DNA of 64,000 nucleotides, taken from the NCBI GenBank assembly GCA_963708295.1, contig CAVPSJ010000004.1, forward strand, positions 1 to 64,000. Reading direction: 5' to 3'. Source of the stretch: an uncultured delta proteobacterium (GTDB lineage Bacteria > Desulfobacterota > BSN033 > UBA1163). Below the pieces are notes generated by a model. It was not told the origin of the DNA. It saw nothing but the letters and a program-made list of their open reading frames with translations, and made no database searches. The position numbers and the translations under genes are program-made. Shown piece after piece: positions 16,371 to 26,488 of the stretch (the first letter of the stretch is position 1; each line of letters opens with the position of its first letter).

Positions 16371-17519
16371 TCACGCGATAAATTGTGATCCAACCCAGAG
16401 AATCATCCCCGCAATCCCGGCACCGATCTCCAGTGGCAAAGCCCACCGCATTTCTTTTCTCACTCCGGAGAGAGATGTATAGGTGGAGGCTCCCGTGAAG
16501 TTCATTGCCAGATAGGCTGAAAGGGCCGGTATAAGAAGTACCCAGGCCAATATCTCGAAGCCGCCCGCCTTGGTGATCCAGCCACCCCAAAGACAACTGG
16601 CACCCATAAGAGCGAAGACGGCTCCAAGACCTAGGCCCTTGACTGAAAAGGCCCTGCCCGGCAGCCATGGGAGGAGAAGAGGGGTTAAGACCGCACCCGC
16701 CAGAATAGCAGCCAGCAGGGCAAAGACAGCAAATAGACCGTGGCTTAAAGCATTCGTCCAGCCCTCTCTTGATCTCCCGAATAACGCCAGGAGAAAGAAG
16801 AGGAGAATAACCAGGGCGCCGGGTTTTAGGGCTCCCACGAGTTCCATGGGTACCAGTTCCAAGCGCTCCCAAGTCGTAAAAGTCTTCAGCCTCATTTCAG
16901 ACGTCGCCTTCAGTCCGGCATCCAAAAAGACGGGGATATCCTTTGAACGGATGGGACCATAAGTCACCTTGAACCCGGATGATTTCTTAACCAGGTGGGC
17001 CGCCACTCCCGGACCCGACAATTGAGGCAGTATGAGTTCCCGATGTGAAACGATTTGCGCCAGCCTGACTGATTCCATTCGACCGATGAGTTCATTCGTT
17101 CCGAAGGTCCCCTTGCCCGAAGCGCACCAGACATTGATCCCTTGCGTATTCAGAACCAGGATCCACACATCCCGGCTGGGCAACGCTTCCCGGAGTTTGT
17201 CAAAGCTCATCTTATAATTCGCCGTCACTAAGACCGGGGATTTCTGATCAGGTTCACCCAATGCATAAAGGCCGGGATCGACCGTGTAATGCATTCGACC
17301 TATCCCCCAGCGAGCCTTAAACGCTCCCAACCCATCCGCCCAAACAAGGGAGGACGAAACCTGAGGGACAGGGCCAATCGGAGTTTGGATGGAGCCGATG
17401 ATAAAAGGTTGTCTTAGACTCGGAAGGCCCACCTGGGCCCCGCCGCTGCTGGGTCAGCAATTCTTGGGCGCAGATTGACCCTCCTGACCATCCACCCCGC
17501 AATCATCTGTCTCTTTCAT
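16371..17519 (-). CDS. hgcA: Mercury methylation corrinoid protein HgcA, predicted selenoprotein (Sec at codon 22, TGA 17454-17456)
   Basis: Cap helix GINVWCASGKGTFG, PGLYALG, VLVTANYK and C-terminal TMs with NFTGASTYTSLSGV. In-frame extension MKETDDCGVDGQEGQSAPKNC(U)PSSGGAQ from ATG 17519, with a GGGAG RBS. Confidence 0.93.
17421..17445 (-). promoter_or_regulatory. SECIS-like hairpin in hgcA
   Basis: CGG-C-GGGGCCC-AGGT-GGGCCTT-CCG; the G-containing loop begins 19 nt after the UGA. Confidence 0.75.
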
Positions 17520-22998: not shown

Positions 22999-23403
22999 CT
23001 ATTTCTTTTTGTTCCTTAAAAGGCTATCCAGACTGAAGCGGCCCGCCCCCGAAGCGAGAAGGACCAGACATCCTCCAAACATGCTCACATTCTTCATAAA
23101 GGGAATCGTCATTTTCGGATCGACAAATATGTTATGAAAAAAAAACGTAGTAGGAATCAGAAAAATGAGAAGCAGCAGTGCCCCAAACCGTGTAAAATAT
23201 CCCAGGATCACCGTGGCGCTGCCAACGAGTTCAAAAAAGATGGCGCCCACGAGAAAAAAATTAGTATAGGGCGTGATGCCATGACTGGCCATATACTGTG
23301 CCGTTCCTCCGAAATCTTGAATCTTCACGATACCGGACTGAAGGAAAATGAGAACGAGAAGAATTCTTCCGAACAACATGGGAAAAGCCTTTAACCATTC
23401 CAT
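22999..23403 (-). CDS. DoxX family membrane protein
   Basis: GRILL.LIF.SG..K, FMKNVSMFGG, GAGRFSLD. Confidence 0.9.
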   Translation of the reverse strand: MEWLKAFPMLFGRILLVLIFLQSGIVKIQDFGGTAQYMASHGITPYTNFFLVGAIFFELVGSATVILGYFTRFGALLLLIFLIPTTFFFHNIFVDPKMTIPFMKNVSMFGGCLVLLASGAGRFSLDSLLRNKKK

Positions 23404-23855: not shown

Positions 23856-24215
23856 TGGGTCTTTCTTTTGACCAAGTGCCTCCGGAGAGACGGCTTCTTC
23901 ATGCTCGGCCCGGTTTGGCGTCAGTGCCTATATTCTAACGGGTAGCCTCCCCTAGGGCTTCGAAGTCCTCCATTCCGCTACACACACTCCCATCATAAGG
24001 AAACCCAGTATAAAGTATATGGGGTAAGCCTTGTATTTTGTCAGAAGAAACACCGTATTTTCTGGCGACGGAGGAGATTCTTCGAATACAGCCTTTTCCT
24101 TTGAAAAATACAGTCGTACCTTTATTGACTTTTCCATCTATTTTGGTATTGATAGAGGGTGTATGCCGCAGCCCATTTTTAACCAGGCCAATTCATGAGG
24201 AAAGGAGGTGGTAAG

Positions 24216-24323
24216 ATGAAGACCAAGAAGAAGGTCTCTTTGAACGAGCTTGCCAGACGGCAAGAAGCAAAGTTCTGGGCGATGATGCGGGCTGCTGACC
24301 CTGGCAAGCGATGCCTCAAGTGA
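24216..24323 (+). CDS. Short peptide upstream of radical SAM/SPASM enzyme (candidate RiPP precursor; C-terminal frame uncertain)
   Basis: AAAGGAGGTG RBS at 24201-24210. As read: MKTKKKVSLNELARRQEAKFWAMMRAADPGKRCLK*. With one extra A at 24269-24271 it reads ...QEAKVLGDDAGC-TGA. Confidence 0.6.
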   Translation: MKTKKKVSLNELARRQEAKFWAMMRAADPGKRCLK

Positions 24324-25411
24324 AAAAGCTGAAAGAGCACATGATTGCCGGTCCGGCAATAAAAGATTTCCAATTTTTCATTCAATGGCATCTCACGGAA
24401 CGATGCAACCTCCGATGTCGTCACTGTTATCAAGGAGGGGGTGAAGTTCACGAGATGTCCGTCGGTGAAGTCAAACGTGAGATCGACGGGGCGACCCAGA
24501 TGTTTCAGGCCTGGGAGGAAGAGCACGGCATAAGGGTTTCCCCGTCGATTCACTTTACCGGCGGCGAGCCCTTCCTCTATCGAGGGTTATCGGACGTTAT
24601 CGCCTTCGCCAAGGCAAAGGGTTACGGGGTAGCCATGATGACGAACGGTTGCCTCGCCACAAAAGAAAAAGCCAAAAAAGTATCCCATCTTGGAATATCT
24701 GACATTCAGGTCAGCCTGGAGGGCCCCCCGGAGCTTCATGCTTCGATTCGGGGAAGAGGAAGCTTCCATTCTGCAGCCAAAGGGGTAGAACATCTTACTG
24801 CGGCAGGCTGCCGGGTGAGCGCGAATGTCACTCTCTCCCGCCTCAATTTCGATAAAATAGAAGAAACAGTCGAGGTCGCAAAGGCAATCGGTTTTTATCG
24901 CATTGGGTTCTCGCGAATGGTTCCCTGCGGAAGGGGGAAAGCCTTGCTCACTCAGTTTCTTACCCCCCAAGAGCTCAAATCTGCCTATCAAGGAATCCTC
25001 TCGGCGAACACACCCACTTTTGAGGTGGTTTCAGGAGATCCTTTGGCTGGAACGCTCTCTGAAACGCCCCCCTCCTCTGGTTGTAACCTGACCCTCTCCG
25101 GGTGCAGCGCGGGTTTTTCAGGGGTCACCCTCATCAGTGACGGTTCCGTAATGCCTTGCAGGAGAATCGGCCTGGTTGCTGGAAATCTGAAGAAGAAATC
25201 TCTCCGGGCCATCTGGGCTTCTTCGAGACTCCTCTGGCAGTTAAGGAGAAGGGAGAGTTACAAGGGGAAATGTGGCCGATGTTCTCTCTGGCCCTCGTGC
25301 CGTGGCTGTCGGGCGGTAGCTTATGCCCATTCGTCTGCCCAAGGAAAACCCGATCTTTTTGCCGATGATCCGCAATGCTGGATATCCGATCAACCCCGTT
25401 CAGATTCTTAA
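24311..25411 (+). CDS. Radical SAM/SPASM domain protein (peptide maturase-like)
   Basis: QWHLTERCNLRCRHCYQ, FTGGEP, and SPASM GCSAG..MPC..KCGRC..CRGCRA..DPQCW. Start could be 24311, 24341 or further upstream. Confidence 0.92.
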   Translation: MPQVKKLKEHMIAGPAIKDFQFFIQWHLTERCNLRCRHCYQGGGEVHEMSVGEVKREIDGATQMFQAWEEEHGIRVSPSIHFTGGEPFLYRGLSDVIAFAKAKGYGVAMMTNGCLATKEKAKKVSHLGISDIQVSLEGPPELHASIRGRGSFHSAAKGVEHLTAAGCRVSANVTLSRLNFDKIEETVEVAKAIGFYRIGFSRMVPCGRGKALLTQFLTPQELKSAYQGILSANTPTFEVVSGDPLAGTLSETPPSSGCNLTLSGCSAGFSGVTLISDGSVMPCRRIGLVAGNLKKKSLRAIWASSRLLWQLRRRESYKGKCGRCSLWPSCRGCRAVAYAHSSAQGKPDLFADDPQCWISDQPRSDS

Positions 25412-25477
25412 GGCTTGAAACTGGCTTGCCCTGTCCCGGGGAGACCCGCCATTCAATCACTCAACAGGGGAGAAAAT

Positions 25478-26488
25478 ATGCTCAAAGAAGCGATGCTTTA
25501 TGAGAAAAAGGAAAACGATAAGGTTTCCTGTTTCTTGTGCAGCCACCATTGCCTGATCTCCGATGGAAAATTTGGCATCTGCAACGTCAGGGAGAACAGA
25601 AGAGGTGTTCTGTTTACTCACGCCTATGGAAAACCCATTGCTCAGAGCATTGACCCCATCGAAAAAAAACCTCTCTACCACTTTCTCCCTGGTTCAAAAT
25701 CATTTTCCATCGCCGCCATCGGTTGCAATTTCCAATGCGGTTTCTGCCAGAATTGGCAAATTTCTCAGGTGAAAGAAGCGGCGGTGTTGGGTCTCGACTC
25801 TGAAGAAGTGAAACCTGAGGACGTGGTAAAGCAGGCAAAACAAACGGGTTCAAGAAGTATTTCTTATACCTACTCCGAACCCACTATTTTTTTTGAATAT
25901 GCTTATGAAATTAGTCAATTGGCCAAAAAGGAAGGGCTCTTCAATGTCTTTGTGACCAATGGCTACATGACGAAGGAGATGGTCCAGACGATCTCTCCTT
26001 ACCTTGATGCGGCAAACGTTGACCTGAAATCCTTCCGTGATAATTATTATAGAAAGGTGTGTGGGGGAAGATTGGCTCCGGTACTGAAAAGCATCGAGCA
26101 GATGAAAAAACTGAACATCTGGATCGAGGTCACGACGCTGGTTGTGCCCGGACAAAATGATTCCGAAGAAGAGTTGAAAAAGATCGCCGGTTTCCTCGCT
26201 GGATTGGATCCCTCGATCCCCTGGCATATCAGCCGGTTTTATCCTCAGTATAAGATGGAAGATTTGGAGAGCACCCCCATCGAGACATTAAACCAAGCTT
26301 ACGACATCGGCAAAGACGCCGGGTTACGTTATGTTTATCTGGGTAATGTGGAAAAAGGGAACAATACCTACTGTGATCAATGCCACCAATTGTTGATCGA
26401 GAGATCGGGCTTCTCAATCGAGACCTATCACCTCAAGGAAGGTCGATGTCCTGATTGTAATCGTTCTGTCGATGGAGTGGGAATGTGA
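25478..26488 (+). CDS. amrS: AmmeMemoRadiSam system radical SAM enzyme
   Basis: CFLCSHHC..GICNVR, DPIEKKPLYHF, GCNFQCGFCQNWQISQ, YVYLGNV. Confidence 0.92.
   Translation: MLKEAMLYEKKENDKVSCFLCSHHCLISDGKFGICNVRENRRGVLFTHAYGKPIAQSIDPIEKKPLYHFLPGSKSFSIAAIGCNFQCGFCQNWQISQVKEAAVLGLDSEEVKPEDVVKQAKQTGSRSISYTYSEPTIFFEYAYEISQLAKKEGLFNVFVTNGYMTKEMVQTISPYLDAANVDLKSFRDNYYRKVCGGRLAPVLKSIEQMKKLNIWIEVTTLVVPGQNDSEEELKKIAGFLAGLDPSIPWHISRFYPQYKMEDLESTPIETLNQAYDIGKDAGLRYVYLGNVEKGNNTYCDQCHQLLIERSGFSIETYHLKEGRCPDCNRSVDGVGM

Follow-up and report, generated by a model that had tools for sequence, protein, structure and literature searches.

What does the short, unannotated open reading frame (ORF) directly ahead of a radical S-adenosylmethionine (SAM) gene encode, and does selenium play a part in it? 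The question is raised by positions 24201 to 25411 of the first 64,000 nucleotides of contig CAVPSJ010000004.1 (assembly GCA_963708295.1), from an uncultured delta proteobacterium; this whole stretch is referred to as the window. An earlier note, made from the letters of the window, had placed a hidden peptide, possibly a selenopeptide, before a radical SAM/SPASM enzyme. That headline holds, at codons other than those the note had named. Judging from sequence conservation, the product of the gene at 24216 is most likely a peptide of 42 residues, two of them selenocysteine (Sec, U), which databases list only as far as the first UGA. It seems to represent a family, as yet undescribed, in which a selenium-containing peptide is paired with an enzyme that modifies it. 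We consider it probable that the two genes form a cassette, in which both UGAs are decoded via SelB and an RNA hairpin and the resulting peptide is modified by the radical SAM/SPASM enzyme whose gene overlaps its own. The observations presented here are a conservation pattern, the hairpin, the Sec machinery and a supported model of binding, from which we infer the insertion of Sec, the modification of the peptide and the function of the cassette.

The peptide gene, its UGA codons and the hairpin

A Shine-Dalgarno sequence, AAAGGAGGTG, lies at 24201-24210 on the forward strand, 5' of the short ORF and as the earlier note had described it; the start codon is the ATG at 24216-18, not at 24217 as the note had implied. 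Read with translation table 11, the ORF gives the 35-residue peptide MKTKKKVSLNELARRQEAKFWAMMRAADPGKRCLK, which ends at the TGA at 24321-23. This peptide, with its terminal KRCLK, was one of the readings offered previously, and it was right in frame and start. It is too short, as the UGAs behave as Sec codons: from 24321 the text continues in frame as TGA-AAA-AGC-TGA-AAG-AGC-ACA-TGA, followed by the hairpin, and the gene read through two UGAs (24216 to 24344, forward strand) comprises 42 codons and the stop TGA at 24342-44, predicting MKTKKKVSLNELARRQEAKFWAMMRAADPGKRCLK-U-KS-U-KST. A AAGGAGGT match of 5-8 nt, located 3-11 nt before the chosen start, accompanies 27 of the 31 peptide genes scored. 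The exceptions are three genes with a 4-nt match and L044, for which an upstream ATG was picked by the script; L007 is incomplete in this scoring, being at a contig end.

Codons were counted in 52 distinct sequences pooled from genome loci, while metagenomic tails, of which 52 are likewise distinct, were counted separately. The first in-frame UGA (24321-24323, forward strand), read as Sec36 and the point at which database gene calls end, is TGA in 52/52 genome sequences, as is the second (24330-24332, forward strand), read as Sec39. The terminal stop, by comparison, is TAA in 23, TGA in 18 and TAG in 11, and ordinary internal stops would be expected to vary likewise. Lysine codons follow the first UGA (AAG 45, AAA 7) and the second (AAG 27, AAA 25), and an in-frame stop of varying kind is found one to three codons past the second of these in all 52 sequences, a pattern which nothing would hold in place in an untranslated stretch. 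An exchange of AAA for AAG, or the reverse, leaves the peptide sequence as it is but gives K/E changes in the other frame. Conservation of the stretch behind the first TGA persists at L010 and other distant loci, where this stretch is not part of the enzyme gene. In our peptide alignment (A1), M1, E17, W21, C33, U36, K37, U39 and K40 are invariant. The Cys33 codon (TGC, 24312-24314, forward strand), three codons 5' of the first UGA, is a cysteine codon at every genome locus with the motif. Conserved coding sequence behind an in-frame UGA, as expected of a bacterial selenoprotein, is thus present at both sites, and a cysteine homologue occurs at the first site; at the second, no cysteine form was seen. 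On this pattern of codons, selenium is presumably incorporated into the peptide.

A selenocysteine insertion sequence (SECIS)-like hairpin, ATTGCCG-GTC-CGGCAAT, spans 24344-24360 on the forward strand, 11 nt after the second UGA and within codons 2-7 of the enzyme gene. Hairpins of 6-9 bp fold directly after the terminal stop at 33/33 loci, 9-14 nt past the second UGA, which is the position shortly 3' of a UGA taken by SECIS-type hairpins, and their loops are G-rich (GTC, GGTC, GTT, TGGAT or GTG), presumably resembling the loop of the E. coli fdhF SECIS (GGUC). Across 28 aligned sequences (alignment A2), 93.1% of cells pair, relative to 83.9% in shuffles, none of 500 of which reached the observed value; slid controls pair at 17-58%. 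Compensatory changes occur in three of the seven pairs (CG/AU/UA; GC 17 and AU 9; CG 13 and UA 10). Another hairpin, GGCA..TGCC, which the earlier note had seen after the TGA it favoured, has no role in the reading of Sec36 and Sec39, and its arms differ among orthologues. Lineages at 43-47% identity (L010, L026-L045 and L051-L061) carry a second, longer, GC-rich hairpin between the peptide and enzyme genes, often followed by a T-run; this arrangement is like an attenuator and, by analogy, would set the ratio of peptide to enzyme. The window's lineage has the overlapping ATGA in its place.

The genome to which the window belongs contains the Sec machinery expected of a selenoprotein producer: tRNA-Sec, SelA (625 bits), SelB (2e-105) and SelD. 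Its two selD genes (G000:C17:66608-67531 and G000:C4:371872-372792) have one in-frame TGA each, in GU-AAK contexts, and SelD is therefore itself a selenoprotein in this genome. No simple common hairpin was seen when the SECIS regions of these two genes were compared with the hairpin described above.

The earlier note had sought its Sec codon elsewhere. In the frame of an ATG at 24311 it read KVLGDDAGC-TGA-PWQA-MPQ, with TGC-TGA-CCC at 24293-24301, and it suspected a missing A beside the AAA at 24269-71; both texts are present in the sequence. It derived from them either a peptide ending DDAGC, upon addition of one A, or a Sec at 24296 within a fusion to, or an N-terminal extension of, the enzyme. 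A link between the peptide and the enzyme frame through an assembly frameshift or a Sec at 24296 is hardly credible, and both derivations are refuted by the orthologues. The local TGC-TGA-CCC coincidence is all that speaks for them, and in the peptide frame these letters (forward strand) read gcT-GCT-GAC-CCt, that is Ala26-Ala27-Asp28-Pro29, and are not a Sec site. As the note had observed, the same TGCTGACCC encodes Cys-Sec-Pro in the N-terminal extension of HgcA (17451-59, minus strand), but two copies of this 9-mer in the window against 0.34 expected are within chance (two or more in 5 of 100 shuffles). The as-read peptide frame is kept in all orthologues, with intact frame and the same length at 8/8 close loci, among which GCG/GCA and AAG/AGA changes are silent or conservative in it. 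Several orthologues have GCG-AAG where the window has GCA-AAG, in the same frame and with no A-run, and the frame is therefore independent of the A-run. The bin 24242-24298 is covered by contigs of four runs, one of DNA and three of RNA libraries, and none shows an indel at 24267-72. The enzyme-frame text 5' of the ATG at 24311 contains a TGA and no start codon in every close locus, there being no ATG, GTG or TTG between the upstream stop and the TGA. In three genomes the same frame carries a TAA right ahead of the true start of the enzyme, and the enzyme gene lies 70-640 nt away from the peptide at distant loci.

The enzyme and the recurrence of the pair

The second gene (24341-25411, forward strand) encodes a radical SAM/SPASM enzyme of 356 residues (MIAGPAIKDF...). 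We place its start at the ATG at 24341, which overlaps the stop of the peptide gene as ATGA, because a TAA in the enzyme frame immediately precedes the equivalent ATG in three genomes (G360, G336 and G429; L021-L023) and the equivalent codon in L002 is GTG. The listed ORF start at 24311 was rejected as 30 nt too early. The cysteines of CX3CX2C (C22, C26 and C29) and those of the SPASM part (C255, C273, C311, C314, C320, C323 and C346) are invariant across 16 family members. Radical_SAM (PF04055) and SPASM (PF13186) score 73.4 and 37.8 bits, exceeding their cut-offs of 29.5 and 21.5, and together with the motif and the cysteine-rich region they place the enzyme in the radical SAM/SPASM superfamily. 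The sole Pfam domains found in it are these two and Fer4_12. Among solved structures, those of SkfB, PqqE, CteB and anSME are nearest to it in sequence.

The earlier note had let its proposal stand or fall with a conserved peptide upstream of homologous enzymes; such a peptide was found, and it is conserved as read. A search of 40 relatives for orthologues returned eight genomes with 78-85% identity and one locus, L010, with 43%. At L010 a similar small ORF leads into CHK-TGA-KS-TGA-KS-TAA; this stretch does not belong to the enzyme gene, being some 120 nt upstream of it. For wider searches we defined the motif as TGY-N6-TGA-AAR-N3-TGA-AAR-N3-(0-2 codons)-stop followed by a hairpin. Enzyme orthologues (E<=1e-60) occur in 27 genomes of 19 genera, among 401 genomes sampled from the phylum, and the motif is found beside the orthologue at 34 of 35 loci from related genomes. 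Of these, 33 were recognised at first, and L041 was added, where the motif lies 640 nt upstream of the enzyme, past a YceI-like gene (810-1489, genome G164). The remaining locus, L025, is truncated by its contig end, and its sequence opens with the stop and hairpin. When all GTDB species were scanned with the enzyme alignment, 25 loci of at least 40% identity were obtained, from Thermodesulfobacteriota/Syntrophales, Geobacter, Syntrophobacterales, Nitrospirota and Chloroflexota/Dehalococcoidia, the next matches being at or below 33%. The motif is present at 21 of the 25 and thus stands beside orthologous enzymes in three phyla; one further locus is incomplete. Metagenomes scanned with a related enzyme gave 80 loci, 78 of them with tail and hairpin. 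TGA occupies both sites in 49 of the 52 distinct tails (L198 among these), TGC the first site in two (L133; L141 = L142 = L143; four contigs of four records) and TAA the second site in one. The TGC we read as classical Sec/Cys alternation. At these frequencies (34/35, 21/25 and 78/80 loci) a short precursor gene is kept beside a modifying enzyme across lineages, as is characteristic of peptides made by the ribosome and modified after translation (RiPPs). Elsewhere in the window's genome the motif matches once more, at C7, but this is a chance hit with neither leader nor hairpin and was dismissed as a further copy.

When 1.84 billion database proteins were searched with a profile built from the read-through peptides, 120 representatives matched at E<=0.001. 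By pattern, 111 of the 119 examined end in C-x-[KS] right before the first UGA, and six more end likewise without the F/Y/L/W-Trp pair that the pattern demands; with 117/119 ending after Cys-x-x, annotation pipelines would be missing the functional tail. P0039 is a Cys variant ending CLK-C-KS and cut at the second UGA. P0018, considered as a full-length Cys variant, was rejected as a gene call with Trp at the UGAs, and P0093 and P0119 are seemingly weak or unrelated matches. The annotation of the 13 closer relatives of the peptide never goes beyond "hypothetical protein", NCBIfam and Pfam contain no family for the 35-residue or the read-through peptides, and a search of the ESM Atlas returned unnamed clusters only.

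Direct binding of the peptide to the enzyme is supported by complex prediction. One job combined the enzyme alignment, the alignment of the table-11 peptide of 35 residues, SAM and three 4Fe-4S clusters, and it scored 0.90 in three runs, relative to 0.13 for the best of three controls. That level is reached by 58 of 80 solved complexes and by 2 of 110 mismatched pairs, counts which are only rough here given the job's own alignments and small molecules. Contact agreement between runs was at least 46%, and the predicted local distance difference test (pLDDT) value of the partner at least 67. In the model, E17, F20 and W21 of the peptide contact W58, R289, W292 and R302 of the enzyme, all invariant in the family, and peptide residues 23-35 contact residues 254-256, 273-275 and 323 of the SPASM cysteine region.

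Other than the peptide, the enzyme has no conserved neighbours. An AmmeMemoRadiSam radical SAM gene (25475-26488, forward strand; 354.5 bits, cut-off 220) lies directly 3' of the cassette in the window, and the C-terminus of such a gene lies directly upstream of it in five close relatives (L002, L003, L004, L006 and L008). As this gene adjoins the cassette only in the close group (six loci, on either side) and not in distant lineages, we rejected it as a component. A radical SAM gene of the B12-binding type, lying upstream of the peptide gene in six loci of one family of the phylum (L026-L030, L035, L045), may encode a lineage-specific extra tailoring enzyme. In L069, a YceI-like gene is found upstream of the enzyme. 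A DoxX-family membrane protein (23002-23403, minus strand), scoring 37.9 bits (cut-off 80) to the HvfX Cu-binding RiPP maturation family, is encoded divergently some 800 nt upstream of the cassette and is not conserved with it. The window's HgcA (16380-17369, minus strand; 454 bits, above cut-off) has the cap-helix cysteine in NVWCAS, and hgcB follows directly after the hgcA stop. Its N-terminal extension (17451-17459, minus strand) reads ...APKNC-U-PSSGG, in keeping with the CU-type HgcA selenoprotein already described (Haft preprint, 10.1101/2022.07.06.499078). A promoter and terminator scan of 23950-25600 returned 0 sites. RNA-library contigs span 24217-24402 (X15) and 24200-24492 (X18). 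The RNA runs show high contig depth across 24185-24530, as does the DNA run, and regions cannot be ranked by this measure.

A proposed mechanism and its alternatives

The cassette may work as follows. The first gene (24216-24344) would yield a basic 42-residue peptide, its UGAs at 24321 and 24330 being decoded as Sec by SelB under the direction of the hairpin at 24344-60, past the true stop, to leave the C-terminal motif Cys-x-x-Sec-Lys-x-Sec-Lys. The second (24341-25411) would supply a radical SAM enzyme that has seven cysteines in its SPASM domain and lacks a separate domain for peptide recognition; this enzyme may hold the conserved E-A-x-F-W helix of the peptide while the Cys/Sec tail is threaded to the auxiliary iron-sulfur cluster, where a chalcogen of the tail would ligate the open iron. 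The 5'-deoxyadenosyl radical could then modify the tail, the likeliest products being selenoether or thioether cross-links or an oxidised Sec heterocycle. Since no protease or exporter is conserved, the modified peptide probably acts inside the cell and at full length. Chemistry of this kind has precedents: according to the accessible portion of PMC10177961, PapB and Tte1186 bind Sec-substituted peptides via an Se-Fe intermediate and form selenoethers, and according to that of PMC9204691, SbtM converts Gly-Sec to a selenooxazole.

Several findings weigh against this mechanism. The enzyme has no RRE (RiPP recognition element) or PqqD domain, no separate protein of that kind or other conserved third gene accompanies it, and neither a protease nor an exporter is conserved beside the cassette. 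Its highest-scoring NCBIfam models are of tetrapyrrole enzymes, albeit far below their cut-offs (AhbD 174.1 bits, cut-off 500; NirJ2 142). Three Nitrospirota orthologues (L055, L059 and L069) have no peptide within 3 kb. The metagenomic lineage with TAA at the second site (L135 = L136), whose peptide would end CLK-U-KS, indicates that the second Sec can be lost and is not universal; L198 has a Tyr codon (TAT) in place of Cys33, the only such case among the 52 distinct metagenomic tails, and L202 is aberrant, having both TGAs while lacking an early stop and any recognisable leader. SelB is found in 26/27 carriers versus 372/401 genomes of the phylum, and in 4/5 Chloroflexota carriers versus 51/81 genomes of the class, and is thus too common in these groups to discriminate carriers. 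Rfam finds nothing in 23900-24700, with chance-level matches only at E<=10. Two UGAs 9 nt apart would depend on a single hairpin, with the first of them 18-23 nt upstream of it, and we know of no tested precedent for one hairpin serving two UGAs so placed. Finally, the complex job used the truncated peptide of 35 residues, so that the Sec tail and its position lie outside the model.

The lack of a recognition domain and the tetrapyrrole-like scores invite a reading in which the peptide is a real two-Sec selenoprotein but acts as a partner subunit, providing a ligand, electrons or selenium, rather than as a substrate, and the enzyme acts on a small molecule such as a tetrapyrrole. The Cys-x-x-Sec-x-x-Sec tail may be likened to a metal- or cluster-binding motif, the absence of a protease or exporter would be natural, and the binding model suits a subunit equally well. 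We nonetheless regard this as unlikely. No family member reaches any curated NCBIfam cut-off, and peptide maturases score nearly as high as AhbD and NirJ2 (ACGX 138, with a TIGR04340 cut-off of 400; SbtM 136; GeoRSP 135; MftC 130). The genome encodes a separate, true AhbD (C17:443245-444249, 606.5 bits), relative to which 174 bits against the TIGR04545 cut-off does not amount to the grouping with heme or cofactor enzymes that would have undone the earlier proposal. The closest solved relatives, SkfB, PqqE, CteB and anSME, modify peptides or proteins. In CteB, a missing eighth SPASM cysteine leaves an open iron for the chalcogen of the substrate; the enzyme described here likewise has seven SPASM cysteines, not eight, which would leave one cluster iron free, and the modelled tail enters the SPASM cysteine region.

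Two further readings dispense with Sec altogether. It is quite improbable that translation ends with the 35-residue peptide and that TGA-AAR-N3-TGA-AAR and the hairpin form an untranslated RNA element involved in stability, attenuation or coupling. While database gene calls all stop at the first TGA, distant loci have a second hairpin and T-run as at attenuators, and TAA stands at the second site in one lineage, both AAR triplets vary at their third position between A and G only and the closing stop, varied in kind, stays in frame 1-3 codons past the second lysine codon in 52/52. The first TGA is replaced by TGC in two lineages with the frame kept, and TAA or TAG never takes the place of either TGA in the 52 genome sequences, though one or the other serves as terminal stop in 34/52. 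Less probable still is readthrough in which the hairpin stimulates near-cognate decoding, for example as Trp or Cys. The spacing between the first UGA and the hairpin is longer than in E. coli fdhF, and SelB was not found in two carrier genomes, G141 and G431; these, however, look incomplete, G141 being rated 85% complete and G431 only 1.4 Mb in size. The window's genome has the complete Sec machinery, the natural replacement is Cys, the usual counterpart of Sec, and the hairpin agrees with bacterial SECIS elements in size, G-rich loop and position.

Comparison with known systems

A two-Sec peptide and the enzyme that would modify it can be set beside several known systems. AhbD and NirJ share with the enzyme the best model scores, the same length class and the lack of extra domains. 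AhbD nevertheless differs in the gap between 174 bits and its cut-off of 500 and in being present as a separate gene of the same genome, and to our knowledge it has no partner peptide. The maturases of SCIFF peptides (ranthipeptides) and sactipeptides, such as CteB/Tte1186, PapB and SkfB, act on peptides of similar build, with about 40 residues, a Lys-rich leader and a chalcogen-rich C-terminal core, and SkfB and CteB, along with anSME, belong to the solved structures nearest to the enzyme in sequence. CteB-, PapB- and SkfB-type maturases carry an N-terminal RRE-type domain, whereas none was found in this enzyme, and we know of no natural Sec in the substrates of SCIFF or sactipeptide maturases. 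The enzyme also scores far below the cut-offs of PapB (78/340 bits), StsB (96/625) and SkfB (67/300). The likeness to PapB and Tte1186 lies in the SPASM auxiliary cluster, which binds Cys or Sec of the substrate and, with Sec-substituted peptides, gives selenoethers (PMC10177961, in its accessible portion).

Selenoproteins with C-terminal 'star' or CU motifs (KCU-star, UXX-star and the N-terminal CU of HgcA; 10.1101/2022.07.06.499078 and the accessible part of a table in PMC13188914) resemble the peptide in having Sec a few residues from a terminus beside Cys and in being systematically truncated in databases. They belong to other sequence families with no radical SAM partner described, and the present peptide has two Sec, as U-x-x-U after C-x-x.

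The closest known system is that of SbtM and the selenobacteriocins (TIGR04082 with TIGR04081), a thio(seleno)oxazole RiPP system from Geobacter and Desulfobacteria (accessible portions of PMC9204691 and PMC13188914). On the reading proposed here, the two share a short ribosomal peptide with two UGA-encoded Sec, a SECIS element, an adjoining radical SAM/SPASM gene, anaerobic hosts of Thermodesulfobacteriota type and peptides that were at first annotated too short. All three membership features that can be tested, however, are absent from the cassette. The enzyme scores 136 bits to TIGR04082 against a cut-off of 350 (129 and 146 bits for the distant members L010 and L063), and it matches model positions 199-503 only, without the N-terminal part of about 200 residues, its CX3CX2C beginning at residue 22. 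Read through their UGAs, the peptides of the window and L010 match 0 NCBIfam families at E<=10, and hence not TIGR04081. The Sec context is K-U-K-x-U-K at the extreme C-terminus after Cys, rather than SGUG or GGUG, the hairpin lies past the stop codon, and the taxonomic range includes Nitrospirota and Chloroflexota.

Our literature search found no described C-x-x-U-K-x-U-K peptide, although subscription journals and supplements lay mostly outside its coverage and a prior description is possible; a term search of the selenoprotein table in the accessible part of the 2026 review PMC13188914 gave no C-x-x-U-x-x-U or K-U-K peptide. As far as the accessible portions of PMC9204691 and PMC13188914 extend, SbtM is the sole natural Sec-containing RiPP system characterised. 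Tentatively, then, the cassette could represent a second, independent natural class of Sec-containing modified ribosomal peptides, in which a minimal radical SAM/SPASM enzyme turns a peptide of about 40 residues with a Cys-x-x-Sec-x-x-Sec tail, by cross-linking or cyclisation, into a metal-binding module or selenium cofactor for use inside the cells of anaerobes from at least three phyla. Synthesis of the enzyme in the window's lineage would be tied to successful double Sec decoding, because the SECIS lies in its first codons and the genes overlap at ATGA. Such a class would differ from the SbtM family in its peptide, its smaller enzyme and its wider taxonomic range. It would supply a natural Sec substrate for radical SAM enzymology, enlarge the prokaryotic selenoproteome by a two-Sec family and, with one hairpin for two UGAs three codons apart, an unusual decoding arrangement, provide a compact test case for one SECIS serving neighbouring UGAs. 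On a practical level, gene calls cut the peptide at its first UGA and, in the window's lineage, begin the enzyme too early.

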